From: Leptospira sp.
GTDB taxonomy: Bacteria; Spirochaetota; Leptospiria; Leptospirales; Leptospiraceae
Length of the DNA stretch: 64,000 nt
Assembly (NCBI GenBank): GCA_034439575.1
Contig: JAWXAQ010000015.1
Location: forward strand, 176,705-240,704
Reading direction: 5' to 3'
Part shown: piece by piece, positions 3,980-40,531 of the stretch
Position numbering within the stretch: the first letter of the stretch is position 1
How the letters are laid out: each line of letters starts with the position of its first letter
Notes under the pieces: generated by a model
The model's database searches: none
The model's input: the letters and a program-made list of their open reading frames with translations, nothing else
Told to the model about the DNA's origin: nothing
Program-made: the position numbers and the translations under genes

Positions 3980-3980
3980 C

Positions 3981-4595: not shown

Positions 4596-4597
4596 TC

Positions 4598-23927: not shown

Positions 23928-24710
23928 TTAAACGGAAATTTCAGCGATGAGGACAGTTATATTATCAGTACCACCTTGTTCATTTGCGGCAGTCACAAGG
24001 GCATTCACCGTATCGTCACCATTTGTTTCTGATAATATATTAGCTATTTCTTTCGCAGATAAAAGACCATGAAGACCGTCTGAACAAATTAATATCTTAT
24101 CTCTAGGTTTAATTTTGATTTTAAAATCGACTGGCTTTATTGTATGCGAAGGGCCTAGCGCTTGTGAAACGACGTTTCTCTGAGGATGACTTTCAGCTTC
24201 TTTCGGAGTAATTTTACCCATGCGAACTAAATTGGAAACAAAGGTTTGGTCTTCACTTATTTGATTGAATTCACCATCTCGGAATAAATACAATCGGCTA
24301 TCTCCCACTTGAGCACAATTAGCACTCCCCCCACTCAGATAACAACTCGTAGCCACAGCACCCATTCTTACTAAATCTGGATTTTGCTCTGCTAGTTTTT
24401 TTAAATGTTCATTTGCTTTTTCTAAGGCAACAACGGGAACTCGACTAGATTTTTCTTTTTCGATTTCTAACCAATGTTCTGCGATATAATTTACAATACT
24501 TTGGCTCGCGATTTGACCACCAGCAAGTCCACCCATACCATCAATTGCGGCGAGAAATATTCCATCACCACGAAGTGATAAATTTGTCCAAGCTTGTTTA
24601 TTTTCCGTTTGTGAAATTTCTGAAATTTTACCTCTGATAATGATATAATTATCTTCGTTTAAACTTCTTCTTCTTCCAAGATCACTTTTTCTATAAACGG
24701 ATACCTTCAT
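23928..24710 (-). CDS. PP2C/Stp1-type Ser/Thr protein phosphatase
   Basis: SDLG.RR..NED, DGMGG, VGDSRLY, CSDGL, GGTDNIT. Start moved to MKVSV (24710) to avoid overlap with the SDR. Confidence 0.92.
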   Translation of the reverse strand: MKVSVYRKSDLGRRRSLNEDNYIIIRGKISEISQTENKQAWTNLSLRGDGIFLAAIDGMGGLAGGQIASQSIVNYIAEHWLEIEKEKSSRVPVVALEKANEHLKKLAEQNPDLVRMGAVATSCYLSGGSANCAQVGDSRLYLFRDGEFNQISEDQTFVSNLVRMGKITPKEAESHPQRNVVSQALGPSHTIKPVDFKIKIKPRDKILICSDGLHGLLSAKEIANILSETNGDDTVNALVTAANEQGGTDNITVLIAEISV

Positions 24711-24721
24711 TAGCGAAATTT

Positions 24722-25486
24722 TTATACGGCTGTCCATCCACCATCGACAGGCAGAGCGACTCCCGTTATGAATGAAGCGCCTTCTCCTAGTAACCAAACA
24801 CATGTTTGCGCTATCTCTTCAGGTTTTGCTAAACGACCTAGGGGATGCATAGCTTCTATAGCTTTTTTCGTTTCTTCTGGTTTACCAAATGCATTCATAA
24901 TGATATCACTCATATCTGTTTCAATGACACCTGGACAAATCATATTCACACGGATCTTTTTCGAAGCATATTCCAATGCTATACTTTTCGTTAATCCAAC
25001 AATTGCATGTTTTGTGGCGGAATATACAGCATTTCCTTTATAACCAACTAAACTAGTAGCTGAACCAACATTGACTATAGAACCACCATTTGTTTTCATC
25101 ATTGCGACTTCTTCTTTTAAACAATGCCATGTGCCTTTTACATTCACATCAATGACAGACATTGCTAAATCATCTGGATACTTTTCGATCATAGCAATGG
25201 TTCCAAGTAAACCCGCGTTGTTTACTGCTAAATCTAATTTGCCAAACTTGGCTTTTATTTCTGAAAACAAATTTATAATTTCTTCATGTTTTGAAATATC
25301 ACATTTTATAAATATCGATTTTGGAGAATGTATGGAAATTTCACTAAGAGCTTTATTTCCCAGTTCTACTCTCCTACCAGAAATCACGACAATTGCCCCA
25401 CGTTTTCCTAGTTCACGGGCAATATCCAATCCCAATCCAGATGTACTCCCAGTAACAAGCGCTATTTTACCTTCAAAATCTTTCAT
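24722..25486 (-). CDS. Classical SDR oxidoreductase (FabG/GDH-like)
   Basis: TGSTSGLG, NNAG, YSATK, PGVIET. Confidence 0.93.
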   Translation of the reverse strand: MKDFEGKIALVTGSTSGLGLDIARELGKRGAIVVISGRRVELGNKALSEISIHSPKSIFIKCDISKHEEIINLFSEIKAKFGKLDLAVNNAGLLGTIAMIEKYPDDLAMSVIDVNVKGTWHCLKEEVAMMKTNGGSIVNVGSATSLVGYKGNAVYSATKHAIVGLTKSIALEYASKKIRVNMICPGVIETDMSDIIMNAFGKPEETKKAIEAMHPLGRLAKPEEIAQTCVWLLGEGASFITGVALPVDGGWTAV

Positions 25487-26332
25487 TCATTTTCTACCTT
25501 TTGAACCTTGGTTTTTGGGAGCATCCTTTACTTTTCTTTGATAGGCTTTCGCTAATTCTTCCGCTCGGGAAAATATAGAATTTAAATCAGAATATTTTCC
25601 ATAATTTAGTTCTTCCGCCAAACTCAAATTATATCTGATTTCATTTAAACAAGCAAACAAGATATCAAGGGCCCTAATCTTTTCACGACGATACGGGGAT
25701 TTTCTTGCTCTGGCGGCAGAATTTACTGCTTTTACGCTATATTTGCGAAGTCCAGAGGCTAATATTTCTTGTTCGTGACTTGGCAAATCATTGGCTATCG
25801 TATATACATTTTTTAGTAGTTTGAGTGTCGTGATCCAAAGTGGAAATCGTTTATACACCTCACCAAATTTACGCATCTCTTCAGAGGTATTCTTGATATC
25901 TAGTTCTTTTGCCGCAATTAGATCTAAAAATTCCTTTGGAATTGGGACAACTTTCCTTTCTTCATAATTAAAAAATAATACAGAGATACGGACTCTTGTT
26001 ACAGAGACCATACCATGATCTTTTGTTAGATGAAAAAATAACTCAAATGACTTTTCACGCAAATTTTCTATAGTAACTTTTGCTTCAACTAAATCGCCAA
26101 AGAGTAGCTCAGATTCGTACGTAACCGTCGCATTACTAAAAATGATGCTACGTCCATAAATGTCCAAAACAGAAAATCCAAGGTATTGGAAAAATTGCAA
26201 ATGAGCTTCTAGTACAAGATCGAGTACTGTCGCAAACGAAACATGTAATTCCCCCCAAAGGTCCGTTTTGCGGATTGGGATCTCAGTCTTAAAATGATAT
26301 TTACTTGGGAGTGGTAAATCGACTTTCGCCAT
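25487..26332 (-). CDS. Hot-dog thioesterase fused to a four-helix-bundle (23S rRNA IVP/Avd-like) domain
   Basis: N-terminal IRKTDLWGELHV..EA thioesterase. The C-terminal LW...VY..ANDLPSHE..LASGLRK...EIRYNLSLAEELNY matches the four-helix-bundle pattern. Confidence 0.75.
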   Translation of the reverse strand: MAKVDLPLPSKYHFKTEIPIRKTDLWGELHVSFATVLDLVLEAHLQFFQYLGFSVLDIYGRSIIFSNATVTYESELLFGDLVEAKVTIENLREKSFELFFHLTKDHGMVSVTRVRISVLFFNYEERKVVPIPKEFLDLIAAKELDIKNTSEEMRKFGEVYKRFPLWITTLKLLKNVYTIANDLPSHEQEILASGLRKYSVKAVNSAARARKSPYRREKIRALDILFACLNEIRYNLSLAEELNYGKYSDLNSIFSRAEELAKAYQRKVKDAPKNQGSKGRK

Positions 26333-26333
26333 A

Positions 26334-26783
26334 TTATTTTACCGAATATCGATTCCTGAATGTTTCAGGTACATTCATGGTTTTTTTATCTTTATAATCA
26401 AAGAAAATTAACACGGTTTTTGCGACCGAAGCAATTTCGCCATTTTCTTTTTTAACAACTGTAATTAATTCAAACGATTTATTTCCGAAATTGGTAGGTG
26501 TTAATTGGAACGTTAAAACTTCACCAGCTTTCACTTCGCTTTTAAATTCGACTTCCATCTTCGGCACAATGATATTTGAACCAGCTATGTTCCATTTTGA
26601 ATCCCCAGTGGATGATAAAAACAAATCAAAGGCTTCATTCACAAGTAAAACCATGTTTTCATATGTCACATGACTTACATAGGCACCAGAAGCGGTGATA
26701 GCACTGCGAGCATCTGCATGCCTTACTGGAAATTTTGTCTCATAAGCAAAGTCAGTTGGTATTTGGATTCCTGTATCAGCCAT
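26334..26783 (-). CDS. 4HBT/YbgC-like acyl-CoA thioesterase
   Basis: VRHAD...HV, VEFKSEV, VPETFR; hot-dog fold pattern. Confidence 0.82.
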   Translation of the reverse strand: MADTGIQIPTDFAYETKFPVRHADARSAITASGAYVSHVTYENMVLLVNEAFDLFLSSTGDSKWNIAGSNIIVPKMEVEFKSEVKAGEVLTFQLTPTNFGNKSFELITVVKKENGEIASVAKTVLIFFDYKDKKTMNVPETFRNRYSVK

Positions 26784-26927
26784 ATCACTCCGAATCTTTA
26801 ATCGAAATTAAGTTCTTCTCCTCAAATATCGACACTTATATGTACGTTCTTTAAAAAGCAAAAAACTAGCTGGACAAAGCTAGGGAATCACTCTATATAG
26901 TAAGCTACTTCAAACCTCGGAGAATCC

Positions 26928-28202
26928 ATGGTAGAAAGAAAAAACCAACGAGTTGTCATTACTGGTATAGGATCTATACTACCGAATGCACTCACTGTCT
27001 CTGATTTTTGGAGTCATCTAGTCAAGGGTGAATCGCAAGTAGATTTTTTGACTAGGTTTTCTACTGAAGATTTGAGAGTCAAAACGGGTGCAGAGTTACG
27101 CCAATTCGACTATAAAGAGCATTTGAAAGATTTAGATCCTGCCCATGCGAAAAATTATAATCGAGAGACATTGGCCATCATGTCCGCATTAAGCGATGCA
27201 CAAAAAGATGCAGGACTTGACAAAAATACAGTCGCACCTAACAGGGTTGGATTTATTGACTCCTCTTCCCGCGCATCACTTGCTTGGTGGGAACACGCAT
27301 GGAATTTATATAATGAATCAAAAGACGATTCACATTTTAATAAATACGCCGTTCTGACTTCAATGGCCTCAAATCCGACCAATCTAACAGCAATTTATGC
27401 GAACATCCAAGGGTTTGTCACGACAATAACAGCCGCTTGTGTGGGCGGTCATCACGCCGCAGCACTTTGTTTTCAAGCAATCAGAAAAAATAGAGCTGAT
27501 GTGATGTATGCGGGAGGGCACGAGTTCCCTCTCCTTAAACCGCTTATGAAAATGTATTCCGATCCTTCTAGTTCAGTGATGTCTCCTGAATCTGTGAATC
27601 CAAAAAATGCCATGCGACCTTATGATAAATCCAGAGAAGGGTTTGTACTCGGTGAGGGAGCCATGTGCCTTTGTTTGGAATCATACGACCATGCCATAAA
27701 TCGTGGTGCTAGAATCTATGCGGAAATAACTGGTACTCTTAGTTACAATGAAGCAAGTCATGCTATGCGAATGGATATGACGGGCGTTAAAGCTGCCAAT
27801 GGTATGAGTGATTTACTTCGCATTAGCAAACGCTCTTTGAAAGATTTTGATTATTTTTGTGGCCATGGAACTGCTACGTATAATAATGATTTGGCCGAAA
27901 GCCGCGCTCTAAAATTATTATATGACGGGGCACCAAAAACCACTTGGGCACCACTTGGATCTATCAAACCCATTTATGGTCATACGTTTGGTGCCGCTGG
28001 TATCATCAATTTAGCAGCCTCTGCTCTAATGATTCACAACCAAACACTTTGTCCGACGATTAATTTGAAAAATCCAGATGATGAATGTGACCACGATCAT
28101 GTGGCAGAAGGCTCGAGAAAAATCAAACTCAATAATATTATGTCATTGGCATTTGCCATAGGTAGCCAATCTTCATTCGTCAGTTTAGCCAAAGCAGATT
28201 AA
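26928..28202 (+). CDS. Beta-ketoacyl synthase, FabF/KAS II-like
   Basis: RVVITGIG, TAAC (Cys), HGTAT and GHTFGAAG (His, His), GFVLGEG. Confidence 0.92.
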   Translation: MVERKNQRVVITGIGSILPNALTVSDFWSHLVKGESQVDFLTRFSTEDLRVKTGAELRQFDYKEHLKDLDPAHAKNYNRETLAIMSALSDAQKDAGLDKNTVAPNRVGFIDSSSRASLAWWEHAWNLYNESKDDSHFNKYAVLTSMASNPTNLTAIYANIQGFVTTITAACVGGHHAAALCFQAIRKNRADVMYAGGHEFPLLKPLMKMYSDPSSSVMSPESVNPKNAMRPYDKSREGFVLGEGAMCLCLESYDHAINRGARIYAEITGTLSYNEASHAMRMDMTGVKAANGMSDLLRISKRSLKDFDYFCGHGTATYNNDLAESRALKLLYDGAPKTTWAPLGSIKPIYGHTFGAAGIINLAASALMIHNQTLCPTINLKNPDDECDHDHVAEGSRKIKLNNIMSLAFAIGSQSSFVSLAKAD

Positions 28203-28208
28203 TATTCT

Positions 28209-29963
28209 ATGAACCAAAGAATCGCCAAAAGATTTGAAGACCCTGACCAAATGGTAAAAGAAATGTTACCACTTGGTGCTTCAATCCATTTGGCGGCGAC
28301 TATGTCTAGACCCAATGCATTGATATACGCTTTGACTAGACAATTCTTTGATAAAAAGCCAGACTTCACGATCAGTGTGGCAGGTCTTCATTCCAGTGCT
28401 CATGCTCTTACTATGGCAGGTGTGATCAAAAAAGCCATCATAGGATTTGCGGGCGACAATTACCCACGTCCGCAACCAAATGCTCTTTATTCAAATATCT
28501 TAAAGGGAGAACCTTTCGAAGTAGAACTTTGGTCTCTCCTAACATTGATTCAACGATTGCAAGCAGGGGCAATGCGTTTACCCGGATTTGTTACTAATTC
28601 ACTATTGAAAACCGACATGATTACAGACAAATTAAATAAAACTGTGCATGTTTATCCTTCACCGGATTCAACGGAGAAGGATCCAAAAAATTTTGCAGTC
28701 GTACAACCACTTAACCCAGATTTTACTTTAATCCACGCAGTTCTTGGCGATGAAGATGGAAATTTACTCCTTACAAATCCTTCAGGTGAAGGAATTTGGG
28801 GAGCCATGGCCGCTACTAAAGGTGTGATAGCAACTTGTGAAAGAATTGTCCCAAGAGGTTCAATACCAGCAGAACTTATATCTATTCCTGGGACCAGAGT
28901 GATATCTATCGCCGAAGCTAAGTTTGGTGCACATCCTCAATCATTGCGCATATTTCCACTCCCTCATCTTGAGATTTATAATGAATTGTCAACTTATATG
29001 GATGACTACGAGTTTCAAATTGATGCAAACCATGCGGCGGCTGGAGATGAAAAACTAAAGAAACGTTGGATGGATGAATGGGTTTATGGACCGAAGAGCC
29101 ATGAAGATTACCTTCGTTATGTGGGCAGCCAACGCCTCAGAAAATTAACAAAACTTCCAGACCCTCAACCCATGTTACCGCCCCAAGATGCAGAATCAGT
29201 CAATGATTCCGAACAAATGATCATTCTTGCCGCGAGAGCCATTATGGAACATGTGAAACGGCGAGGATATACGACACTCCTAGCTGGAATCGGAGCCGCA
29301 CATATCGCTTGTTGGACGGCCGCTCGCCTTCTTGCCAAAGAAGGAATTCCGGTTCACGTCATGACAGAACTCGGTTTTTATTCCATGACACCTTCTGTGG
29401 GAGATGTATTTCTCTTTAGCCAACTTCATGCCAATGGATCACAAGGTCTTTCGGACATCACACAGATTTTAGGTATGCTCGTTCCCGATAAGTGTTTGGG
29501 AGTGATGGGTGCAGCAGAAATAGATTGGTTTGGAAACGTGAACTCTATTGCCACAGCAAAGGGAAAATTTATCGTAGGTTCGGGCGGTGCCAATGATATT
29601 GCCTCAACAGCAGATTGTATTATTGTAGCAAAAGCGATACGTCAAAGGTATGTAAGAAAGGTCAATTTTATTACCACAAATGGGGATAGAGTCAAAGAAG
29701 CGGTTTGCCAATTCGGTCGATTCAGAAGGGATAAAATGGAACATCTTTTTGAATTCACTAATTGGATAGCCCCTCCCTCAGATCCCGAAATGGAAGTGGA
29801 AGAAGCAGTTTTAAAATTCACAAGTTGGTTTCCTCCAGATGAAATTCCTCCCAAGGATGAGCCAAAGCCCACTTCTGAGGAATTGACAATTCTTAGATCA
29901 CTTGATCCAGATCGAATTTATATAGAGCAGTTTATGGTTTACAGAAGCCTTCCAGGAGATTGA
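28209..29963 (+). CDS. Fused alpha+beta family I CoA-transferase-fold protein (GctAB/IpdAB/AibAB-like)
   Basis: PDFTLIHA..D.DGN, AKFGAHP, AGIG, TELG (catalytic Glu position), AAEIDWFGNVN, GSGGANDIAS. Confidence 0.82.
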   Translation: MNQRIAKRFEDPDQMVKEMLPLGASIHLAATMSRPNALIYALTRQFFDKKPDFTISVAGLHSSAHALTMAGVIKKAIIGFAGDNYPRPQPNALYSNILKGEPFEVELWSLLTLIQRLQAGAMRLPGFVTNSLLKTDMITDKLNKTVHVYPSPDSTEKDPKNFAVVQPLNPDFTLIHAVLGDEDGNLLLTNPSGEGIWGAMAATKGVIATCERIVPRGSIPAELISIPGTRVISIAEAKFGAHPQSLRIFPLPHLEIYNELSTYMDDYEFQIDANHAAAGDEKLKKRWMDEWVYGPKSHEDYLRYVGSQRLRKLTKLPDPQPMLPPQDAESVNDSEQMIILAARAIMEHVKRRGYTTLLAGIGAAHIACWTAARLLAKEGIPVHVMTELGFYSMTPSVGDVFLFSQLHANGSQGLSDITQILGMLVPDKCLGVMGAAEIDWFGNVNSIATAKGKFIVGSGGANDIASTADCIIVAKAIRQRYVRKVNFITTNGDRVKEAVCQFGRFRRDKMEHLFEFTNWIAPPSDPEMEVEEAVLKFTSWFPPDEIPPKDEPKPTSEELTILRSLDPDRIYIEQFMVYRSLPGD

Positions 29964-29964
29964 T

Positions 29965-30948
29965 ATGAATAGCATGGGTGCAGGACAGTTAAAATATTTA
30001 GGTGTTGAATTCCGCGGAGTTGGACACTACCTCCCCGAGCGAATCGTGTATAACGATGAAATCCGTTCTCGATTGAAATACCCAGAAATGCACCCAGCAG
30101 AAAAAGCTGTGATCGGAAATATTGGTGTCACGGAACGTCACCGTGTAAATGAAACAGAGACGGTTCCCTTTATGGCAATGAAGGCCGCACAAGACGCATT
30201 AGCTGATGCTAAGATGAAACCGGAAGATATTGATTTATTTATTTTGGCCAATTGGACAGACAGATACTACCTTCCCGATCTCGCACCTCAAGCCTCAAAA
30301 CTAACAGGGACAAAAAATGCACTCGCCTTTGATATTTCAACAGCTTGCACTGGTTTTGTGCATGGCGTTCAAATGGCGGCATGTTATTTACAATCTGGTC
30401 GATGGAAAAACGCCCTTGTCATCGGTTCTGAACGATTTAGTGTCAGAACAAGAATGGGTGGATATGGTGAATTTACTGCGGGTGATGCGGCGGCTGGTGT
30501 TGTATTATCGCATACAGGTAGTCAGACGACAGGTCTTATTGATTCATTTTTAGTAGATGAGGCAGACTTAGCCGATATTATCGTGACAGGTCCACCACCA
30601 CAAAGTTATGTGAAAAGTTATCCTGAACTTGTGACAAATGCAGCAGACCTCACATTGAAAGCATTTGATATGCTTATGGAAAAACATGGCTTAAAAGAAA
30701 CCGATGTGGATTGGGTAGTTCCTCATCCAGGTACAGATATTGTTGTTCAAGATGTACTAAATCGGATTAAATTCCCGCGCGAAAAAGTATTGGGAAATTT
30801 TGACAGAGTGGGAAACGCATCGGCGGCTTCAATCCCTATCGTTATATCGGAATATTATAAAAAAGGAATAATCAAGAAAGGTCAGCTGTTGTTAACACCT
30901 GCTGTCGGTGGAGGCTTCTATTGGGGTGGCCTTCTTTTCCGTTTCTAG
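29965..30948 (+). CDS. 3-oxoacyl synthase III, FabH-like
   Basis: STACTGF (Cys), PHPG (His), GNASAASIP (Asn), GGGFYWG. Confidence 0.9.
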   Translation: MNSMGAGQLKYLGVEFRGVGHYLPERIVYNDEIRSRLKYPEMHPAEKAVIGNIGVTERHRVNETETVPFMAMKAAQDALADAKMKPEDIDLFILANWTDRYYLPDLAPQASKLTGTKNALAFDISTACTGFVHGVQMAACYLQSGRWKNALVIGSERFSVRTRMGGYGEFTAGDAAAGVVLSHTGSQTTGLIDSFLVDEADLADIIVTGPPPQSYVKSYPELVTNAADLTLKAFDMLMEKHGLKETDVDWVVPHPGTDIVVQDVLNRIKFPREKVLGNFDRVGNASAASIPIVISEYYKKGIIKKGQLLLTPAVGGGFYWGGLLFRF

Positions 30949-30968
30949 TTTAAAAAGAGAGTTAAAGT

Positions 30969-33900
30969 ATGATTTCATTTTCTGGCTACCATATCCGTAA
31001 GCGGATGAATGCTGAAGGTTCACCTTCCCAAGTTTATTTAGGCGTATCAAATGATGACGGTAAAGAAGTCGTCATTAAATTTATCTCTATCTCTGATCCT
31101 TTACATGCAGCAATTGTTAACTTAAGAAATGAGTTTGAGATCCTCACTTATTTACATGGCCATGGTTTAGGGATTAAACCTTTTGAATTCAGAAGATTAC
31201 CTGATGGGCATGCGCTTGTCATGGATTATTTAAAAGGTTTGTTCCTTCCTGATATCGTTGCAAATAAAGATGACCACCAAATGCCACTCGGCATGTTTTA
31301 TGATGTCGCCATTAGTTTAGCCGAAGACCTCGCAGAATTGCATCGCCACAAAGTGATGCATAAAGATATCAAGCCAGATAATATTATTTATTTTCCAGAA
31401 ACTAACAAAGCAAAGTTGATAGACTTTGGTATTTCAACTAGACTTTCCAAAGAAGAAAGTGGTTTTTATGCACCTAACCAATTAGAAGGTTCAGTCCAAT
31501 ACATTTCTCCAGAACAAACGGGAAGGATGAACAGGTCAGTCGACTATAGGACGGATTTTTATTCCTTGGGTATTTTATTTTTTGAATTAGCCGCAGGTCA
31601 ATTGCCTTTCAAAGGCTCTGATTTAATGGAAATCATTCACTCTCATATTGCGAAGCCGCCAAAAAATCCAACGGACATAAACTCAAAAATACCTGCTTCC
31701 CTCAATGCTATCATCTTAAAGTTATTAGAAAAAAATGCAGAAAATCGTTATCAAACTTCTTATGGATTAAAATTCGATTTAGAAAAATCCCAAAAACTTT
31801 TCAAAGATGGCAAACTAGACGAATCATTCCCGTTAGGTGCTAGAGACTTCTCAGAAGAATTTCGTATACCTCAAAAACTTTATGGTCGTGAAGAAGAACT
31901 CAAACAGCTACTTTCTTCCTTTAATAAAGTTGGACTTGAAGGTACAACTGAAGTTGTATTGATTGGTGGCTATTCTGGTGTTGGTAAATCATCACTCGTC
32001 AAAGAAGTTCAAAAACCGATCACTGCTCTTCGTGGTTATTTTTTAACCGGCAAATACGACCAGTATAATCGTAGCGAACCATTTAGTGCCATCTTACAGG
32101 TATTATCCTCACTTGTTCGGATGATCTTAACTGAACCTCCCGAATCAATTGCAAGATGGAAAGAAAGAATTCTTTCGGCATTAGGTAGCAATGGTAAGGT
32201 GATAACTGACATTTTACCTGATTTGATTCATATTGTTGGAGAACAAAAAAGCGTAGCCGAAATGGGAGCTAGTGAAAACGCAAACCGTTTTTACGCTGTG
32301 TTTTTAGAATTCATTCGAGTGTTTGCTGATCGTGAACATCCACTCGCCATCTTTTTGGATGATATGCAGTGGGCGGATTCTGCATCCTTACAACTTCTCC
32401 GAACACTTTTAGATGATAGATCAACTGGTTCACTATTTATCATGTTAGCATACAGAGATAATGAAACAGATGCGAATCATCCATTTACTTTACTTATTGA
32501 AGATATCAAAAAAGAAAGTGGATCTCTACCTTCTATCATACTTAAACCACTTTCAAATGCGAATGTTGCCGAATTATTAAGTGACTCACTATATACCCCA
32601 AAGGCCAATGTACAGCCATTAGCTGATCTTCTCGCTTCAAAAACAGGCGGAAATCCATTTTTCATTACTGAACTACTCAAACAATTAATCCGAAAAGATT
32701 TGATACGTTTCGATGGCTCTGCGGGTTCAGAAGGCCAAGGTGCTTGGATTTGGGATCTCGCCAAGATCAAAGAAGCTGCCATCTCAGACAATGTCGTCGA
32801 GTTGTTATTACAAAGGATGCGTTCTCTTCCCAAAGAAAGCCAAGATTTGCTCCGAACAGCATCAAGTATCGGTAACCAATTTGACCTCTATACACTAGCT
32901 CAAATCACTCATTACAGTTATAGCGAAATAGTAAAGTTAGTTGGTGATACAGTCAGAGAAGAACTTTTCATTCCGCTTGGCGATGATTATCGCAAAATTG
33001 ATTCACTCGGAAATGAAGATAATGATGAAAATAAAAATACTGCCATTTCCATCCGTCTCAGGTTCCAACATGACCGTGTTCAACAAGCTGGTTATGAATT
33101 GTTATCTGCGGATGAAAGACCAAAACTCCATCTTGCGATCGCCAAAGTATTATTAGCCTCCACTTCCAAAGAACAACTCGAAGAGAAAATTTTTGATATA
33201 GTTGGACATTGCAATAAAAGTGTCAAAGCGACAACCAACAAGGATGATTATCGTCAATTTTTAGACTTGAATTTGACTGCCGCCAAACGTGCCAGAAGTG
33301 CGGCCGCTTATTCTCCATGTCTAGATTATCTCAAAACAGCTGAACTTCTTTTGAATCTTATTTATCCCGACGATAATAAAGTTTGGAGCGCAGAATATGA
33401 ACTTGCGTATGATTTGTATCGAGGATTAGCGGAAGCTGAATACCTAAATGGAAATTTTGAAGCCTCAGAGAAACTCATTTCAAATATTCTCAAACATGTT
33501 AAAACTCCATTAGAGAAAGCAGAAACATATAAAATCTTAATTATCCAATATTCACTAAAAGCAGCTTACAAAGAATCAGTGGATGCTGGACTAGATGCAC
33601 TTAGCCTACTTGGGATCAATATTTCCAAAGAAAATGTGGATGAAGCGATTGGCAAAGAAGTAGCCAGAATCAAAGAACTTTCTGAAGGTAAAATCACTGA
33701 ATCACTGATTGATGCACCTTTGATGGAAAATACGGAGATGAAGGTTGCTGTGACTCTCCTAACAGACCTTATGAGTCCATGTTGGAATTCCTATCCAAAC
33801 ATGTTTCCATTGTTAGTTTTTCGAACTGTAAATCTTTATTTGGAACATGGTTTAAATCCAGTTTCATATGGTTATTCTTGTTATGGTATCATTCTTGGAA

Positions 33901-36323
33901 GTGGATTTGGCCAATTCAAAGATGGTGATGATTATGGAACTCTTGCCTTCCGTATCGCAGAAAAATTTCAATCCAAGTCTGACTTGACAAAAGCGGCTAA
34001 CGTTCTTGGTAATTTTACAAGTCCTTGGGTTCGTCACGTTAAACATTCGGAAGAAATAAATAGACAAGGTCTAGAAGCATCATTAGAATCCGGGGAATTC
34101 CAACACGGGTCTCTTGGGGCAATGAACACACCTGTTTGTTTATTTTTCCAAGGAAAACAACTTTCCGAATTCACAAATGATATCAATAGACTTTTATCCT
34201 TCGGCAAAAAAGTAAAGAGTATCCTAGCAACCGACACGGTAATGGCGTTTGACCTGATCGTAAATAACTTACGTGGTCTCACCCCTGCCGCATTAGAATT
34301 TAGAAATGCTACAATCACAGAAGAAGAGTATTTAAAAACTTGTGAAGAACACAAAGGTTTGTATTCCATCACACTTTATAATATTCTAAAAGCCCAAGCT
34401 TTATATATTTATGAAGAACCAGAAGAGGCGCTTAGGTTATTAGAGGAAGCAAACAAAAATATCGTTTTCCTATTTGGCCTCGTAAGCAATGCAGAGTTGA
34501 ACTTTTTTATATCTTTATGTTTGTCTAGTTTGTACAAAATCAAATCAACAAGCGAAAGAAAAGAGATCATCGTCCGCATCAAAGCAAATCAAAAACAGAT
34601 GAAAATCTGGGCTCAAAATTCTCCTGAAAACTTCTATCACAAATTTCTTCTCATAGAAGCAGAACTTGCTAGATTAGAATACAAAAACTGGAAAGCTGCA
34701 AAGTTATATGACCAAGCAGTAACTGAAGCTCGCGCAGGTGAATTCGTCCAAATGGAAGCGATCATTTCCGAAGTTTCTGCTAGGTTTTGGTTATCAAAAA
34801 AGAATGATCGTAATGTAGCCGAATACTATACCGACGCATACAAGTTATACGAACAATGGGGTGCCACACGCAAGTGTACTGAATTAAAAGAACGATATCC
34901 TGATTATATCATTGAAAATCGCCAATTCACTGGCTCCAAAAATTTTGCACTTACCATTTCTGCAACGACCACAGATATTTATTCTGGTCAATCTCTTGAC
35001 TTACAATCAGTAGTTAAAAGCTCTGTAGCCATTTCTGGAGAAATTCAATTCGAAAGTTTGATTACAAAATTGATGTCCATCATGATGGAAAATGCGGGCG
35101 CCGAAAAAGGTGTACTGCTTTTACGCGACGGCGAAGGGTTGTTTGTCGAAGCTGAACATTCCGTAGGAAAAGGCGAGATGCGAACTTTGATGCACGAACC
35201 GTTAGAAACATTTATGAATGTTCCACGTTCGGTGATCTATTTTACCGAACGAACTCGTGAGATTTTGGTATTAAACTGTGCGACCAAAGACACTCGATTT
35301 GCCATTGATAAGTATGTCCAAGAAAACCAAATTAAATCTGTATTTTGCGTTCCGATTTTAAAGCAAGGTGCCTTGTCGGGTATCCTCTATTTAGAAAACA
35401 ATTTATCGGAAGGAGCCTTTACACCAGAAAGGCTTCAAACCATTGGCTTACTCAGTTCACAAGCGGCGATCTCCCTCGACAATGCCCTACTCTACCAAAG
35501 TTTGGAAGAAAAAGTTCGTGATCGTACACAAGAGTTAGCTCATGCTAACGATGAATTGGCGGAGAAAAACAAACATATCACAGAATCGATCACTTATTCA
35601 CTTAACATTCAACAAGCGATGTTACCTGCTATGGATGCGCTCAAACAATCATTTAACGATTACTTTGTGTTGTATATGCCAAAGGATATTGTTTCTGGAG
35701 ACTTCTTTTGGCATGCCAAAAAAGATGATTGTGTGTTACTCGCTGTTGCCGATTGTACTGGTCACGGAGTTCCAGGCGCACTGATGTCGATGATTGGTAT
35801 CAATTCACTTAATGCTATTGTGAATGAAAAAGGTATCACAGATCCTGCAAAAATTTTAGAAGAATTAAATATTCGTGTTCGCACTGTTTTGCGACAGGCT
35901 GAAAATGATGCTAACTCAATGGATGGTATGGATATTTGCCTAATTCGTTATACGGGAAACTCACTTCAATTTGCTGGTGCGAAACGTCCACTTTACATCT
36001 ATGGGCCAGAAGGTTATAGAGAGTATAAGGGTGATAAGTCTTCCATTGGGGGAAGACAAAAAGAAGAATTGAGAACCTATACAACTCATGAGATATCGTA
36101 TACACCTGGTAAAACGGTTGCATATCTATCCACTGACGGATATACTGATCAATCAAATACGGAACGAGTTCGAGTATCGACAAAGAATTTTTTGAAAATT
36201 GCGGAAGAGAATCTTTCAAAGTCAGGCGAAGCCCAAAAGGATGCCTTTTTGTCCTTTTTACGAAGTCACATGGGAACAGAACAACAAAGAGACGATATCA
36301 CGATCGCAGGTATCGTGATTTAA
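30969..36323 (+). CDS. Multidomain Ser/Thr kinase, AAA/STAND-like ATPase, helical repeats, GAF and SpoIIE/PP2C phosphatase (HstK-like architecture, SiaA position)
   Basis: HKDIKPDN, DFG, SPEQ; GYSGVGKS and LDDMQWAD; GAF (CVPI..GILYLEN); VSGDF, ADCTGHGVPGA, TDG, RDDIT. Confidence 0.92.
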   Translation: MISFSGYHIRKRMNAEGSPSQVYLGVSNDDGKEVVIKFISISDPLHAAIVNLRNEFEILTYLHGHGLGIKPFEFRRLPDGHALVMDYLKGLFLPDIVANKDDHQMPLGMFYDVAISLAEDLAELHRHKVMHKDIKPDNIIYFPETNKAKLIDFGISTRLSKEESGFYAPNQLEGSVQYISPEQTGRMNRSVDYRTDFYSLGILFFELAAGQLPFKGSDLMEIIHSHIAKPPKNPTDINSKIPASLNAIILKLLEKNAENRYQTSYGLKFDLEKSQKLFKDGKLDESFPLGARDFSEEFRIPQKLYGREEELKQLLSSFNKVGLEGTTEVVLIGGYSGVGKSSLVKEVQKPITALRGYFLTGKYDQYNRSEPFSAILQVLSSLVRMILTEPPESIARWKERILSALGSNGKVITDILPDLIHIVGEQKSVAEMGASENANRFYAVFLEFIRVFADREHPLAIFLDDMQWADSASLQLLRTLLDDRSTGSLFIMLAYRDNETDANHPFTLLIEDIKKESGSLPSIILKPLSNANVAELLSDSLYTPKANVQPLADLLASKTGGNPFFITELLKQLIRKDLIRFDGSAGSEGQGAWIWDLAKIKEAAISDNVVELLLQRMRSLPKESQDLLRTASSIGNQFDLYTLAQITHYSYSEIVKLVGDTVREELFIPLGDDYRKIDSLGNEDNDENKNTAISIRLRFQHDRVQQAGYELLSADERPKLHLAIAKVLLASTSKEQLEEKIFDIVGHCNKSVKATTNKDDYRQFLDLNLTAAKRARSAAAYSPCLDYLKTAELLLNLIYPDDNKVWSAEYELAYDLYRGLAEAEYLNGNFEASEKLISNILKHVKTPLEKAETYKILIIQYSLKAAYKESVDAGLDALSLLGINISKENVDEAIGKEVARIKELSEGKITESLIDAPLMENTEMKVAVTLLTDLMSPCWNSYPNMFPLLVFRTVNLYLEHGLNPVSYGYSCYGIILGSGFGQFKDGDDYGTLAFRIAEKFQSKSDLTKAANVLGNFTSPWVRHVKHSEEINRQGLEASLESGEFQHGSLGAMNTPVCLFFQGKQLSEFTNDINRLLSFGKKVKSILATDTVMAFDLIVNNLRGLTPAALEFRNATITEEEYLKTCEEHKGLYSITLYNILKAQALYIYEEPEEALRLLEEANKNIVFLFGLVSNAELNFFISLCLSSLYKIKSTSERKEIIVRIKANQKQMKIWAQNSPENFYHKFLLIEAELARLEYKNWKAAKLYDQAVTEARAGEFVQMEAIISEVSARFWLSKKNDRNVAEYYTDAYKLYEQWGATRKCTELKERYPDYIIENRQFTGSKNFALTISATTTDIYSGQSLDLQSVVKSSVAISGEIQFESLITKLMSIMMENAGAEKGVLLLRDGEGLFVEAEHSVGKGEMRTLMHEPLETFMNVPRSVIYFTERTREILVLNCATKDTRFAIDKYVQENQIKSVFCVPILKQGALSGILYLENNLSEGAFTPERLQTIGLLSSQAAISLDNALLYQSLEEKVRDRTQELAHANDELAEKNKHITESITYSLNIQQAMLPAMDALKQSFNDYFVLYMPKDIVSGDFFWHAKKDDCVLLAVADCTGHGVPGALMSMIGINSLNAIVNEKGITDPAKILEELNIRVRTVLRQAENDANSMDGMDICLIRYTGNSLQFAGAKRPLYIYGPEGYREYKGDKSSIGGRQKEELRTYTTHEISYTPGKTVAYLSTDGYTDQSNTERVRVSTKNFLKIAEENLSKSGEAQKDAFLSFLRSHMGTEQQRDDITIAGIVI

Positions 36324-36367
36324 CAAAGATGATAGTATGATATTAGAGGAGAAATGTTAAAAATTAT

Positions 36368-36919
36368 ATGCAAAAAATGGATATCTTAACCTACGAACAG
36401 TACAAAACCATGTCGGATCACCGACTCCTGATTCACTTTAAGGGTGCTCTATACCAAGACATCCTTACAGAATTAGGCAGTATTATACAGACCTCGATGA
36501 AGGGTGAAACTAAAATTAAGAAGATTTTTGCCGTTTTTGTCGAACTTGCTCAGAATATTCTTCATTATTCTCTTGAAAGGATAGCGAATCCTGACGAATC
36601 TACATCTGGAGTCGGTATGATTGTGGTGACGGAAAGACCAGAAGGATATTATGTCAGTTCTGGAAATTATATTTCGTCAGATAAAATCACGGGAATTGAG
36701 GAAAAGATCAAATTTATAAATGAGCTCTCTCCCGAGGAAAAAAAATCATACTACACAAAACAATTGCGCTCCGATCGACCAGACGATAGTAAAGGTGCTG
36801 GAGTTGGGCTTATCGACATTGCTCGAAAGTCTGATGCACCGCTTGAGTATTCGATCGAAAATGTTCCAGAAGGGAAATCCTTCTTTACATTAACCGCATT
36901 TTTCAAGAAGGAAGATTAA
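36368..36919 (+). CDS. siaB: SiaB family protein kinase
   Basis: FVELAQNILHYS N-box, SGN, GAGVGLIDIARKS; followed by a SiaC homolog. Confidence 0.87.
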   Translation: MQKMDILTYEQYKTMSDHRLLIHFKGALYQDILTELGSIIQTSMKGETKIKKIFAVFVELAQNILHYSLERIANPDESTSGVGMIVVTERPEGYYVSSGNYISSDKITGIEEKIKFINELSPEEKKSYYTKQLRSDRPDDSKGAGVGLIDIARKSDAPLEYSIENVPEGKSFFTLTAFFKKED

Positions 36920-36922
36920 TCA

Positions 36923-37297
36923 ATGGAAACGATTCGCATCGCAAGTACAAAAAATTCACCCGAAGTCACTCTCGATTTTGAGAATGGAATCGCTGAAGTC
37001 GCAGGAGAATCTTATCCTGAAAATGCCGTCAGTTTTTTTAAACCCGTTTTCGAATGGCTTAATCATACTATTTCGCAAAAGAAGCCCTTTAAGTTTTTAT
37101 TTAAATTAGATTATTTTAATACTTCATCTTCTAAATGCATTATCGATATTCTGGATCTACTTCAAATTTATCATACTAACGGTGGTAAGATTAACGTCGA
37201 GTGGTACTATCGCCAAGACGACGAAGATATGAAAGATACTGGTGAAGAATTTTTAGAAGATGTAGATTTACCTCACGAACTGATTGCTTACAAATGA
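36923..37297 (+). CDS. siaC: SiaC (DUF1987) STAS-like phospho-switch protein
   Basis: TKNSPEV, GESYPEN..FFKP, YFNTSSSK (phospho-Thr), WYY...DEDM...GEEF. Confidence 0.9.
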   Translation: METIRIASTKNSPEVTLDFENGIAEVAGESYPENAVSFFKPVFEWLNHTISQKKPFKFLFKLDYFNTSSSKCIIDILDLLQIYHTNGGKINVEWYYRQDDEDMKDTGEEFLEDVDLPHELIAYK

Positions 37298-38739
37298 GTG
37301 GTGTTTTCGAAGAAGAACATGAAGCCTGGAGCCAAATCCAAGAGGCTCTCAAACAACCAAACCTCAATACCTCAGAATTAAAAAATCTGGCAGATACTAT
37401 GTCTGCTAGATTTGGTAACCTTTTAAAACAAACAGAAAAACTAACAAAAGTTGGCGATTCCGCACAAAATCGATTGATGCGAATCCAAAACGAATTACAA
37501 AATTCAAATTCAAAATTAGAAAAATCTATACGAAATCTCCACCTACTCTCTGAGTTAGGAAAAGTCATCACCTCTTCGTTAGACGCAAAGAAAATTTTAT
37601 CAGAATTATATAATCAACTGAAAGATGAAATGGATCTAGATATCATTTCTGTAGGAAGTTACGACCAAGAATCAGACAGCGTAAAATATAAATTCAGTCT
37701 TAACCAAGGCAGTTATGTGCCTTCGATTTTTTTAGAAAACTTAAATGAGGACAATTATTCTTCTATTTGCATTCGCGGGAATAAAGAAGTCATTTTAGAA
37801 GATTTAAACTTAGAAACACCAGAACGTATTGCAGGCCTTCGCAAACAATGGGGAGAAGAAATTCGATCTATCGTTTTTATTCCATTAAAAGTAGAAGACA
37901 GAGTTGTGGGTGTTTTCACCATTCAAAGTCGCAATGCAAATGCTTACAATTACCAACAACTCAATATTATACGATCACTTGCAAGTTATCTTGGTATTGG
38001 TCTAGATAACGCAGATGCATACCGTAGTTTATCTAAAAGAAACAAAGATCTAAAATCTTCTTTAGAGAAAGTTCGCTCATTAAATGAAAATTTGGCGCTC
38101 GAACGTCAAAAATCTGAGAATTTATTATTAAACATTTTGCCAGGTCCTATCGCAGAACGCCTCAAAAGTGGTGAAGAAATCATTGCAGACTTTTTTCAAG
38201 ATGCTTCTGTTTTATTCGCAGATATCGCGGGTTTTACTGTCCTCAGTTCCAAGATGAATGATGCGACTAAACTAGTTTCAATATTGAATGATATTTTTCG
38301 TGATTTTGATAACATCACCCAAGAGTTTGGTTTAGAAAAAATTAAAACGATTGGTGATTGTTATATGTTAGCTGGTGGAATTCCAAATGCAGCACCTGAT
38401 CACTTGGACCGCATGGCTAAAGCAGCCCTTCGTTTTTGCCATGTTTTTGAAAAAATCAAAAATGATTGGGGTCTTGATATCAATGTTCGTATTGGAATTC
38501 ATTCTGGCGAAGTAGTCGCTGGTGTGATAGGAAAGTATAAATTCGTATATGACCTCTGGGGTGATACTGTGAACATAGCTTCGCGTATGGAATCACATGG
38601 CCAAGTGGGCAGAGTGCATGTATCGAAAGAAGTTTACAATCGTTTGAAAGATAGTTATCATTTTGAAGCTCGTGGTGAAATTGACGTCAAAGGAAAAGGA
38701 AAGATGGAAACATGGTTCCTTGGCTCTACTAAAAATTAA
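37294..38739 (+). CDS. Class III adenylate cyclase with SiaD-like N-terminal coiled coil and GAF domain
   Basis: LLLNILP, LFADIAGFT, KIKTIGDCYM, YDLWGDTVNIASRMES; N-terminal EKLTKVGDSAQ. Confidence 0.9.
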   Translation: MSGVFEEEHEAWSQIQEALKQPNLNTSELKNLADTMSARFGNLLKQTEKLTKVGDSAQNRLMRIQNELQNSNSKLEKSIRNLHLLSELGKVITSSLDAKKILSELYNQLKDEMDLDIISVGSYDQESDSVKYKFSLNQGSYVPSIFLENLNEDNYSSICIRGNKEVILEDLNLETPERIAGLRKQWGEEIRSIVFIPLKVEDRVVGVFTIQSRNANAYNYQQLNIIRSLASYLGIGLDNADAYRSLSKRNKDLKSSLEKVRSLNENLALERQKSENLLLNILPGPIAERLKSGEEIIADFFQDASVLFADIAGFTVLSSKMNDATKLVSILNDIFRDFDNITQEFGLEKIKTIGDCYMLAGGIPNAAPDHLDRMAKAALRFCHVFEKIKNDWGLDINVRIGIHSGEVVAGVIGKYKFVYDLWGDTVNIASRMESHGQVGRVHVSKEVYNRLKDSYHFEARGEIDVKGKGKMETWFLGSTKN

Positions 38740-39429
38740 TTAAGTTTGAACTTTTATCCCTATTTGAATCAACCGTAATAGAGCAACTAACTGTTGCTCT
38801 ATTTTTTTGACATCTTCCTCAGTTTTTGCAGATCGGATGTTCCTTTCGTTTAAGTTAGCAAAACCATGAACAGCACTCCAAACGGACATAGATAATGTTT
38901 CTGCATCATCATCTTTTTTAAAAACCCCTCTCTCTTGCCCAAGAGCTATGATATCGTAAAGACCCATATATGCCTCGCGACCTACAATGGAAAGCTCTTC
39001 GGGAACAGGTCCTTCTAAATAAATTTCACCACTAAACATAAGTTCGGTGCGTCTTGGATTTTTCCAAGCCAATCTTATATAATTCTCACCAGCCTGATTT
39101 AATTTTACAATAGGATCGTCACTGAGATTCCAAGCATCTCGCAAGGTATCTCTCAATTCTTTGAAACCCAGGGAAGTGATGGCATAAAGAAGATCTATTT
39201 TCTTAGGAAAATGGCGGTATGGTGCCGTATGACTCACACCAATAGCTGCCGCGACATCACGTAAACTAAGATTATAAACACCGCGTGCCTCCAAAAATTC
39301 GCAAGATTTAATTAAAACTAGATTTCGAAGGTCCCCATGATGATAATTTGCCTCTATTAATTGTCCTTTGGATTTTGCCTTTTTTGTTTGAGAGATTAGG
39401 GATTTTTTTTTAGTAATATTTTTTTTCAT
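38740..39429 (-). CDS. TetR family regulator (WHG-type C-terminus)
   Basis: YHHGDLR, LSLRDVA..GVSHTAPYRHF, WSAVHG. Confidence 0.92.
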   Translation of the reverse strand: MKKNITKKKSLISQTKKAKSKGQLIEANYHHGDLRNLVLIKSCEFLEARGVYNLSLRDVAAAIGVSHTAPYRHFPKKIDLLYAITSLGFKELRDTLRDAWNLSDDPIVKLNQAGENYIRLAWKNPRRTELMFSGEIYLEGPVPEELSIVGREAYMGLYDIIALGQERGVFKKDDDAETLSMSVWSAVHGFANLNERNIRSAKTEEDVKKIEQQLVALLRLIQIGIKVQT

Positions 39430-39432
39430 TCT

Positions 39433-39494
39433 ATATATACACTGTATACATTATTTGTTGACAATGGAAACATCTATGTTTACACTGTATATAA
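39433..39494. promoter_or_regulatory. Three tandem 19-bp pseudo-palindromic operators overlapping a sigma70 promoter
   Basis: ATATATACACTGTATACAT (39433), TTGTTGACAATGGAAACAT (39455), ATGTTTACACTGTATATAA (39476); TTGACA 39458 + 17 nt + TACACT 39481. Confidence 0.75.
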
Positions 39495-39567
39495 AGTAAA
39501 TTTTCATTTCCGGCGATGTCAATCCAAATTCATAACAGGAAATTAAAGCCGAACCTAAGGAGTCTAT

Positions 39568-40530
39568 ATGCGTATTTTAAATTTTCCCCCTTTAAGTGAT
39601 CCAAGATCGGCCAATTATTGGAATCTGATTTTTATGTTCATTTTCACATGTATTCTGATACCACTCAATCTTTTTGATCAGAGCCTTATTTCTGGTGCCC
39701 CAAAATGGATCAAACCATTGAAGTTTTCTATGTCAATCGGTCTCTACTCCATCACATTTCTTTGGATACTCCAATTTATGAATCTGAAAGACAAATGGTT
39801 AACAAGAATTTCTTGGACGATTACAATCACACTGATCATAGAAATGATAGCCATTTTCGGTCAAGTGGTGAGAGGTGAGGCGAGTCATTTCAATATATCC
39901 TCTCCGCTAAATGGATTTATTTTTTCGATCATGGGTACAAGTATAGGAATTATGTGGTTTGCCCATCTAAGTGTAGGTATTTACATATTTCGCCTAAAGA
40001 AGATTAACTCATACCTTAGAGAATCATTGTTATGGGGGATTTGTATTTCTGCATATGGAATGATAATCGGTTTTTTTATGACAGTACCAAGACCAGAACA
40101 AATTGAACTTATGCAACAAGGAATCATGCAAGTGAATGGAGGCCACAGCTTTGGTGCGCCAGACGGGGGTGTAGGTGTTTTATTTTTGGGATGGAGTACT
40201 GTTGCGGGTGATATGCGAGTTCCGCATTTTTTTGGAATGCATGCGATCCAATTTTTTTCTATCCTATCAATTTTCAAATTAGGACTAAAACCCGAAACTT
40301 CAATAGAAAAAATAAATCGAACAGGCCTTAGATTCATGGCCATGGCTTGGTTTGCCATATCCATACTTATGACCATCCAAGCATTAAATGGTGAATCAAT
40401 ATTTAGAACCAGTCAGAATTTTCTAATTGGGTATATAATATCTGGAATCATTGGTATTATTGGAATGGTTTTAAATACTCAAAAATTCAATTTTTTCTTA
40501 AATTCAAATAACAAAACAAAGGTGGCATAA
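39568..40530 (+). CDS. Conserved multi-pass membrane protein
   Basis: WIKPLKF, RGEASHFN, GDMRVPHFFGMHAIQ; AAGGAG RBS. Confidence 0.75.
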   Translation: MRILNFPPLSDPRSANYWNLIFMFIFTCILIPLNLFDQSLISGAPKWIKPLKFSMSIGLYSITFLWILQFMNLKDKWLTRISWTITITLIIEMIAIFGQVVRGEASHFNISSPLNGFIFSIMGTSIGIMWFAHLSVGIYIFRLKKINSYLRESLLWGICISAYGMIIGFFMTVPRPEQIELMQQGIMQVNGGHSFGAPDGGVGVLFLGWSTVAGDMRVPHFFGMHAIQFFSILSIFKLGLKPETSIEKINRTGLRFMAMAWFAISILMTIQALNGESIFRTSQNFLIGYIISGIIGIIGMVLNTQKFNFFLNSNNKTKVA

Positions 40531-40531
40531 A

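Follow-up and report, generated by a model that had tools for sequence, protein, structure and literature searches.

A ketosynthase/CoA-transferase cassette free of acyl carrier protein adjoins a SiaABC-like partner switch and an adenylate cyclase gene in Leptospira

In the SiaABCD system of Pseudomonas aeruginosa, the phosphorylation state of SiaC is controlled by SiaA and SiaB, and SiaC is an activator of SiaD that binds to its stalk (PMC8457831). The site on which SiaB and SiaA act is T68 of SiaC, the Thr of an NTSS motif, as reported in PMC7647112. We have analysed a gene block at positions 23928-38739 of a 64,000-nt stretch of a Leptospira sp. genome (contig JAWXAQ010000015.1; the whole stretch is called the window below), in which genes resembling this switch stand directly behind two ketosynthase genes and a coenzyme A (CoA)-transferase gene. 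Condensing enzymes independent of acyl carrier protein (ACP) are known from the Pseudomonas quinolone signal pathway, where enzymes of the FabH fold act on CoA thioesters and a thioesterase takes part. In Mycobacterium tuberculosis, the condensing enzymes of type II fatty acid synthesis (KasA/KasB/FabH type) go together with a Hanks-type kinase and a PP2C phosphatase, which is a likeness to the window; however, those genes are not in an operon with kinases, ACP is used, and there is neither a Sia switch nor a cyclase. The components of the Leptospira locus are all of known kinds. Their combination, ACP-free ketosynthase and CoA-transferase genes with a Sia switch of predicted cyclic AMP (cAMP) output and a giant kinase in the place of SiaA, is absent from the literature searched, in which nothing specific was found on the leptospiral locus or on Sia-type systems with an adenylate cyclase.

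Pfam and NCBIfam scans and the list of open reading frames (ORFs) recovered every gene named in the original prediction, a reading of the sequence alone, with the same coordinates and domains. The gaps of the + strand are 6, 1, 20, 44 and 3 nt from the first ketosynthase gene to siaC, and the start of the cyclase gene overlaps the siaC stop by 4 nt; the first three of these gaps, the 0-11 nt gaps of the divergent arm and the domain calls had all been given correctly. The + operon would be a composite of two separately evolving modules that have become joined.

The signalling module opens with a gene for a giant protein of 1784 aa (30969-36323, + strand), a SiaA analogue in which Pfam recognizes Pkinase (122.7 bits), AAA_16 of the STAND type (133.7 bits), TPR-like, GAF (43.9 bits) and SpoIIE-type PP2C (70.9 bits; residues 1586-1779) domains. 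The motifs HKDIKPDN and DFG of the kinase and GDFFW and DCTGHG of the PP2C tail are readable in the translation. It is followed on the same strand by genes for a SiaB-family protein kinase (36368-36919; DUF6272 141.8 bits), which passes the family model NF038262 (170.4 bits, cut-off 85), a SiaC phosphoprotein (DUF1987; 36923-37297; PF09345 141 bits), and a protein composed of a coiled coil, a GAF domain and a class III adenylate cyclase (37294-38739; Guanylate_cyc PF00211 209.4 bits, GAF_2 43.2 bits). The order of phosphatase, SiaB kinase, SiaC and nucleotide cyclase is that of SiaABCD, and a PP2C domain for dephosphorylation is present. SiaC matches P. aeruginosa SiaC (6kko) with an E value of 3.3e-21, NTSS being aligned under NTSS, and the phospho-Thr motif is thus kept; the phospho-acceptor by alignment is Thr67, and N66-T67-S68-S69 are invariant in 12 orthologues.

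The locus differs from SiaABCD in its sensor, its output and its first genes. The phosphatase of the window is the tail of a kinase-STAND-TPR-GAF protein without HAMP or membrane part, whereas SiaA is a membrane HAMP-PP2C protein. SiaD is a GGDEF diguanylate cyclase; in the window, the gene downstream of siaC encodes a GAF and class III adenylate cyclase, and Pfam found no GGDEF domain in it. The metal and transition-state motifs of this cyclase are readable (FADIAGFT, KTIGD, NIASRMES), and the Lys/Asp pair that we take, from consensus motifs, to mark adenine specificity points to cAMP as the product. In addition, SiaC falls under the NCBIfam SiaC equivalog cut-off (107.3 vs 150 bits), and the operon opens with ketosynthase and CoA-transferase genes. 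The L. interrogans cyclase LA_4008 (PMC3789758) is a different protein.

The three genes ahead of the giant kinase form the condensing cassette. The first (26928-28202, + strand) encodes a FabF-like ketosynthase, here called KSII (ketoacyl-synt 108.4 bits, Ketoacyl-synt_C 75 bits), with an intact Cys-His-His triad whose AAC, HGT and GH motifs are readable in the translation; it scores 278.3 bits against the FabF model TIGR03150, under the cut-off of 493.75. The second (28209-29963, + strand) encodes a 584-aa family-I CoA-transferase of the glutaconate/3-oxoacid type (CoA_trans PF01144, 127.6 bits) with alpha and beta parts fused in one chain, its profile matching GctA over positions 113-311 and GctB over 422-487. 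E387 and a GSGGAND motif are invariant in 12 homologues of this protein; E387, the candidate catalytic Glu, stands some 35-45 residues ahead of the segment aligned to GctB 98-167 and hence outside it. The third gene (29965-30948, + strand) encodes a FabH-like ketosynthase, KSIII (ACP_syn_III_C 94 bits, ACP_syn_III 57.5 bits), with an intact Cys-His-Asn triad (TAC, PHPG and GNAS motifs readable); it lies under the cut-offs of TIGR00747 (199.3 vs 292.1 bits) and of another FabH model (213.6 vs 249 bits). For KSII, KSIII, the kinase and the cyclase alike, the catalytic positions are presumed from consensus motifs. The 20-nt spacer between the KSIII and kinase genes (30949-30968, + strand) contains the ribosome-binding-like stretch AAAGAGAG.

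Among solved structures, KSIII is matched by true FabH (E 8e-47) and by PqsD (3h76; E 3.5e-27). It shares the FabH fold with PqsD and PqsBC; however, it is nearer to the true FabH structures, and the window has no anthranilate-CoA ligase. Type II fatty acid and polyketide synthases also have condensing enzymes with catalytic triads, but the block contains neither ACP nor FabD, and both ketosynthases are under the FabF and FabH equivalog cut-offs. As the original prediction had stated, no ACP, FabD or dehydratase family was matched by Pfam within the block, and no enoyl reductase was matched there either. Elsewhere in the genome, the PP-binding (ACP) family has a single match, on another contig, and no gene exceeds the FabD cut-off, the best TIGR00128 match being 32.6 bits against 260.9. 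A separate true FabH (328.5 bits) is encoded elsewhere, whereas the cassette KSII is the only FabF-like gene of this genome, and none of the 41 genomes of the same genus has a FabF over the TIGR03150 cut-off. Likewise, L. interrogans and two further genomes have no free-standing FabF-like gene other than that of the cassette, and one of them has an additional, weaker FabF-like match inside an ORF of ~3300 aa. In four genomes of the window's genus, a ketosynthase domain occurs within an ORF of ~3300 aa instead of a canonical FabF. Since the genome has no FabD over cut-off, no canonical FabF and a lone ACP on another contig, malonyl-ACP chemistry is unlikely for the cassette; judged from these sequences, KSII and KSIII most likely both use CoA thioesters.

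The divergent arm on the - strand begins with two genes for hotdog thioesterase-like proteins. The one nearer to the cassette (26334-26783) has a 4HBT_2 domain (49.1 bits). The other (25487-26332) joins a 4HBT_2 domain (54.7 bits, residues 29-137) to a C-terminal four-helix bundle of the 23S_rRNA_IVP family (36.4 bits, residues 165-263). The same fusion, of a thioesterase with a bundle of the 23S rRNA intervening-sequence/Avd-like family, is found in L. interrogans (L017:8715-9578). The next gene (24722-25486) encodes a short-chain dehydrogenase/reductase (SDR), FabG-like or 3-hydroxybutyrate-dehydrogenase-like (adh_short_C2 208.6 bits); of the NCBIfam cut-offs listed, those of the equivalogs included, it passes only that of the glucose 1-dehydrogenase subfamily (219.1 vs 215 bits), and orthologues with 43-49% identity occupy the same arm in other Leptospira. 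The arm ends with a stand-alone PP2C Ser/Thr phosphatase of the Stp1/IreP-like kind (23928-24803, likely start Met32 at 24710), over cut-off in Pfam (PP2C_2 41.9 bits, PP2C 40.4 bits), with the motifs RRSLNED, DGMGG and GGTDN, and under the cut-off of the NCBIfam Stp1_PP2C_phos equivalog (202.8 vs 230 bits). The gaps are 1 nt between the thioesterase genes, 0 nt to the SDR gene and 11 nt to the PP2C gene if it starts at Met32.

Loci anchored on the CoA-transferase were collected (80 of 527 confirmed loci kept), and the window proteins were mapped on them by tblastn. The CoA-transferase occurs in 68 and SiaC in 71 of 114 Leptospiraceae genomes. Every genome with the CoA-transferase also has SiaC, three genomes, fragmented or incomplete, have SiaC without it, and 43 lack both. 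The two halves of the locus, whose failure to co-occur in other genomes would have spoken against the original prediction, are therefore found together in 68 of the 114 genomes, with no case of a CoA-transferase lacking SiaC. These two genes share a contig and are within 10 kb of each other in 50 of the 68 genomes. By genus, the CoA-transferase occurs in 22/22, 24/24, 7/8 and 4/4 genomes, and in 4/41 of the window's own genus (3/40 besides the window genome); the first two genera are those that we take, from named loci and from taxonomy, to be the P1 (pathogenic) and P2 (intermediate) groups.

In all but three of the 21 spirochaete loci, the KSIII gene is directly followed by that of the giant kinase, behind which siaB, siaC and the cyclase gene come wherever the contig is long enough. 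In these loci, identity to the kinase of the window is 45-50% beyond the window's own clade and 88-90% in its two closest relatives; over the whole family, the orthologues that follow KSIII have 42-50% identity. Of 20 Leptospiraceae loci, 17 have 12-77 nt between the KSIII and kinase genes; the remaining spacers are 169, 460 and 909 nt long. This linkage has been maintained through at least four distinct rearrangements of neighbouring genes. For example, the KSII gene has been relocated to the far side of the divergent arm in pathogenic-type and some intermediate-type species, and in other genera an SDR and a thioesterase gene are inserted between the CoA-transferase and KSIII genes (L030, L041). 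The relocated KSII gene is directly trailed by a second DUF6272/SiaB paralogue, 36-40% identical to SiaB (L017:4528-6361; L013-L018, L021, L023, L025), and the genomes with this paralogue still have one SiaC each. The stand-alone PP2C was matched only in loci of three Leptospira-type genera, with no match in the distant Leptospiraceae loci L028, L041, L105 and L096.

Each module is also found alone outside the family. In 39 actinobacterial loci, a KSII gene stands directly ahead of a CoA-transferase gene, and a KSIII gene comes after it in 34; the trio has the same gene order as in the window, with 40-48% identity and no ACP. A FastTree phylogeny placed the actinobacterial and leptospiral CoA-transferases in one ketosynthase-linked clade (support 100), with 20 stand-alone homologues outside it; two of the 80 loci, with short or broken matches, were left out of it. 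The giant kinase, SiaB, SiaC and the cyclase occur on the leptospiral side only, as none of these Sia genes was found by tblastn in any of the 39 actinobacterial loci. Two types of actinobacterial locus can be distinguished. In the first, the trio is accompanied by an extra second KSIII, SDRs, a ketosynthase/chain-length-factor-like pair and an enoyl-CoA hydratase, and no ACP-sized gene is present in the tightly packed locus of Corynebacterium belfantii. The FabF-like gene of the latter is split into two overlapping ORFs of 233 and 256 aa (L067:3879-5151), suggesting a frameshift in that record.

In the second type, an AfsA-like gene lies just downstream of the trio (10 of 39 loci; an eleventh locus is cut short). 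Genes for a 4-oxalocrotonate tautomerase, a phosphotransferase and an acyl-CoA dehydrogenase precede the trio, and a HAD hydrolase, the AfsA-like hotdog protein, a KSIII-C protein and an SDR follow. On the plasmid NZ_CP107949.1, ScbA and ScbR genes lie ~10 kb from the trio, and no PP-binding domain was found on the whole 88-kb replicon. AfsA homologues transfer a beta-ketoacyl group to dihydroxyacetone phosphate, leading to butyrolactone, butenolide and furan signals, as stated in PMC13500789. By analogy, the actinobacterial trio plausibly supplies a beta-ketoacyl thioester to an AfsA-type synthase. The leptospiral locus differs from these clusters in having no AfsA, HAD phosphatase, acyl-CoA dehydrogenase or extra ketosynthase/chain-length-factor genes; a tblastn search with the plasmid AfsA-like protein yielded no match at E <= 1e-5, neither in the window nor in the spirochaete loci. 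No paper describing the actinobacterial KSII/CoA-transferase/KSIII clusters was found in the literature search. The suggestion that an acyl-CoA-derived molecule is tied to signalling thus gains an independent hint from the position of the ACP-free trio beside hormone synthases of the AfsA type, while the chemistry itself is deduced.

The architecture of the giant kinase is widespread: 6908 of 8000 scored candidates have E <= 0.001, and those named include proteins of Bacteroidota and of a gammaproteobacterial metagenome-assembled genome (MAG). Eighty giant-kinase loci outside the family were compared among the matches listed, most of them cyanobacterial kinase-histidine-kinase fusions, and in only five of these 80 listed loci does the match extend through the PP2C end; two of the five continue with SiaB and SiaC. 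In one of these two, from a Gallionella MAG (L109:9968-19322), a gene for a class III cyclase comes next, and ketosynthase genes are absent. A convergent HAMP-SpoIIE gene resembling classical SiaA follows these genes, and a second SiaB-SiaC pair stands at the start of that locus. A metagenome protein of 2001 aa (P0208) is a giant kinase fused to a DUF6272/SiaB domain. In Spirosoma, Microcoleus and Saprospiraceae loci (L121, L135, L172), a kinase-AAA_16-TPR-GAF protein appears, from tblastn overlap only, to carry a cyclase-like segment in place of the PP2C tail.

The + operon and the divergent arm are separated by 144 nt (26784-26927), which we read for control elements. TGGACA (26871-26876) and TATATA (26894-26899), spaced by 17 nt and facing the + operon, are inferred to be its promoter. 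The stretch GCTGGACAAAG of this region is invariant in all three close relatives aligned. A palindrome at 26866-26883 was considered as an operator and rejected as a conserved palindrome, two of the relatives keeping GCTGGACAAAG only. At the end of the operon, a consensus scan lists a terminator-like hairpin of 11 pairs with a T run (38777-38803, + strand), and it lists no terminator-like site between 30895 and 31052, around the junction of the KSIII and kinase genes. Promoter-like sites number 47 against 48.4 +/- 6.8 in shuffled sequences, and such sites being no commoner than in shuffles, the scan neither supports nor excludes an internal promoter.

Transcription was followed at the orthologous locus of L. 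interrogans (L017), for which 19 RNA runs from seven studies contain the 3-kb junction stretch. Two stranded runs were mapped as raw reads on 18 kb in 600-nt bins; the values given are those of run X21, with which run X22 agrees. Sense depth is ~390-810 over the CoA-transferase gene, ~1070 over the KSIII gene, 904 in the 600-nt bin holding the KSIII/kinase junction, and 896 and 875 over the first part of the kinase gene; it is ~2600-3100 in the kinase gene from ~L017:14.3 kb, 3800-5600 over siaB and siaC, and 3300-3800 over the cyclase gene, and falls to 31 just past it. On the other strand, the divergent arm has depths of 730-840 over the thioesterase, 170-240 over the SDR and 55 over the PP2C gene. 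In addition, a single RNA contig of 4745 nt covers the CoA-transferase gene, the KSIII gene and the 5' part of the kinase gene. Sense coverage is therefore unbroken where the original prediction had proposed to look for it by RNA-seq, over the fabH-like/kinase junction, and read-through from the cassette into the kinase in L. interrogans is supported. The locus is well transcribed in cultured L. interrogans.

We propose that a SiaABC-like switch with cAMP output is coupled to a CoA-based cassette, the role of which would be either to synthesize a beta-keto or beta-hydroxy acyl compound or to report the flux of acyl-CoA; we give this reading about an even chance of being right. The first module would be an ACP-independent, CoA-based condensing cassette composed of the FabF-like ketosynthase, the fused family-I CoA-transferase and the FabH-like ketosynthase. 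Most likely, it would condense acyl-CoA with malonyl-CoA to a short- or medium-chain beta-ketoacyl-CoA, which would then be reduced and/or hydrolysed, and the two hotdog thioesterases and the SDR of the divergent arm might serve as tailoring or release enzymes. The second module would be a SiaABC-type partner switch in which the C-terminal PP2C of the giant protein takes the function of SiaA. SiaB would phosphorylate SiaC on Thr67, and the PP2C tail and SiaB would between them set the state of this residue. Unphosphorylated SiaC would activate the adjacent GAF-adenylate cyclase, whose coiled coil precedes the GAF domain at the N-terminus, and the product would be cAMP, not cyclic di-GMP (c-di-GMP). 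A complex prediction for the cyclase and SiaC (12-row cyclase alignment, without controls) gave scores of 0.13 and 0.16 against a mark of 0.32 and is evidence neither way. Within the giant protein, the obvious input sites would be the GAF and TPR/STAND regions that precede the PP2C tail, and because both modules are kept in one transcription unit, the cassette product or the acyl-CoA flux appears to be the likeliest cue for this sensor.

Leptospires live on, and depend on, exogenous long-chain fatty acids. Together with this diet, the response of the P. aeruginosa Sia system to carbon availability (PMC7647112) makes a reading of acyl-CoA status as plausible as a secreted signal. The full circuit, in which the ACP-free trio makes an acyl signal or a metabolic-state reporter, and the giant protein reads it and sets SiaC phosphorylation and cAMP, is put forward only tentatively, as a possibility that we consider doubtful in this complete form. 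If true, it would be a previously unknown autoinducer-like or carbon-status circuit, present in every pathogenic- or intermediate-type species searched and lost from most saprophytes.

Several observations weigh against this coupling. In two genomes (G124, G129), the KSII-KSIII-kinase-SiaB-SiaC-cyclase array is intact and the CoA-transferase is elsewhere; in G125, SiaB, SiaC and the cyclase come directly after KSIII and the CoA-transferase is unlinked; in G072, one contig has the cassette, accompanied by a thioesterase and two SDRs, and another has the kinase-SiaB-SiaC-cyclase genes (L098, L099). The CoA-transferase stands alone and unlinked in G067 and L029, and in L027 the trio is present with no kinase within 9 kb. 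These exceptions show that the kinase-cassette link is frequent and resilient, yet not obligatory. Another dedicated sensor beside the unlinked cassettes of L027 and L098 was sought and is unconvincing, their flanks consisting of unrelated genes and 7TMR-DISM proteins. The co-occurrence counts come from one family, whose related genomes are not independent. Outside Leptospirales, no cassette was found beside a giant kinase among the 80 listed loci, which gave four weak ketosynthase-like matches at 23-31%; with only five of these loci matched through the PP2C end, the absence of ketosynthase neighbours elsewhere is weakly sampled. The GAF domains of the kinase and the cyclase, the two that had been predicted, share 28% identity over 58 residues, which lends no support to the same ligand for both. 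Meanwhile, the RNA evidence is from L. interrogans, not from the species of the window, and a contig across two genes together with 600-nt bins is no proof of one single mRNA. In both stranded runs, depth rises about threefold, from ~880 to ~2600-3100, at L017:14300-14600, some 1.5 kb into the kinase ORF. The step may come from an internal promoter, from RNA processing or from a more rapid decay of the 5' part, and the Sia genes probably have a second transcript source beside the cassette promoter. The description of the locus as one divergon therefore holds as far as a conserved unit whose linkage outlasts rearrangements is concerned, but is too strong in view of the split in G072, the CoA-transferase moved away in another genus, and this depth step.

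Information could instead flow in the opposite direction: the kinase domain of the giant protein would phosphorylate the ketosynthases or the CoA-transferase and so tune the cassette, the stand-alone PP2C would undo this, and cAMP would be a parallel readout of the sensor and no response to the product. Intact kinase motifs fit this, as do the Stp1-like PP2C of the divergent arm, seen in the window and in other Leptospira-type genera, and the SiaB paralogue that directly follows KSII in P1/P2-type species although each genome has one SiaC. Adjoining Stk/Stp pairs are a known arrangement (PMC1262709). In M. tuberculosis, Ser/Thr kinases phosphorylate KasA, KasB and FabH. However, the distant loci L028, L041, L105 and L096 keep ketosynthase genes beside the kinase with no PP2C match, and the giant kinase family is widespread without a ketosynthase neighbour among the matches listed. 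The cassette enzymes would be putative substrates, a role assigned from their sequences, and we regard this explanation as unlikely.

It could also be that the two modules share an operon by history only, being co-expressed under the same conditions without a direct biochemical link. Each is found alone elsewhere, the two are unlinked in at least one Leptospiraceae genus (L098, L099), and the RNA depth step within the kinase gene suggests partly independent expression. A purely historical association is nevertheless rather improbable in our view, because the KSIII-kinase linkage outlived at least four rearrangements while kinase identity fell to 42-50%, none of 114 genomes has the CoA-transferase without SiaC, and the KSIII-kinase spacers are short. 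Finally, a role in primary lipid metabolism, with the cassette as a CoA-dependent substitute for FabF and FabD, lengthening or remodelling fatty acids taken up from outside and controlled by the kinase and cAMP, would suit the lack of a canonical FabF in the Leptospiraceae genomes searched, the standing of the cassette KSII as the only free-standing FabF-like gene in those checked, and the dependence on exogenous long-chain fatty acids, but it is very unlikely, as the cassette is missing from, and so dispensable in, 37 of the 41 genomes of the window's genus, the block has no dehydratase or enoyl reductase, and the nearest relatives of the trio belong to specialised-metabolite clusters.

The coupling of the cassette to the Sia switch, which we prefer, points to a connection, so far uncharacterised, of cAMP signalling with a small acyl metabolite. 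The locus offers a concrete entry into leptospiral cAMP signalling, and it would add cAMP to c-di-GMP as an output of Sia partner switches. It also flags as uncharacterised an ACP-independent ketosynthase/CoA-transferase module common to actinomycete hormone-type clusters. Its distribution, in all genomes of the pathogenic- and intermediate-type genera against four of 41 in the window's saprophyte genus, adds to its interest.

Behind the operon (38740-40969 of the window), a TetR regulator gene convergent to the cyclase gene is followed by genes for a 320-aa protein without Pfam match and an ABA4-like protein. The TetR gene and that of the 320-aa protein adjoin the locus in the two closest relatives only (L012, L026). 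The G+C content is 0.38-0.42 over the cassette and the kinase gene (26001-36000), against 0.32-0.37 in most of the window.

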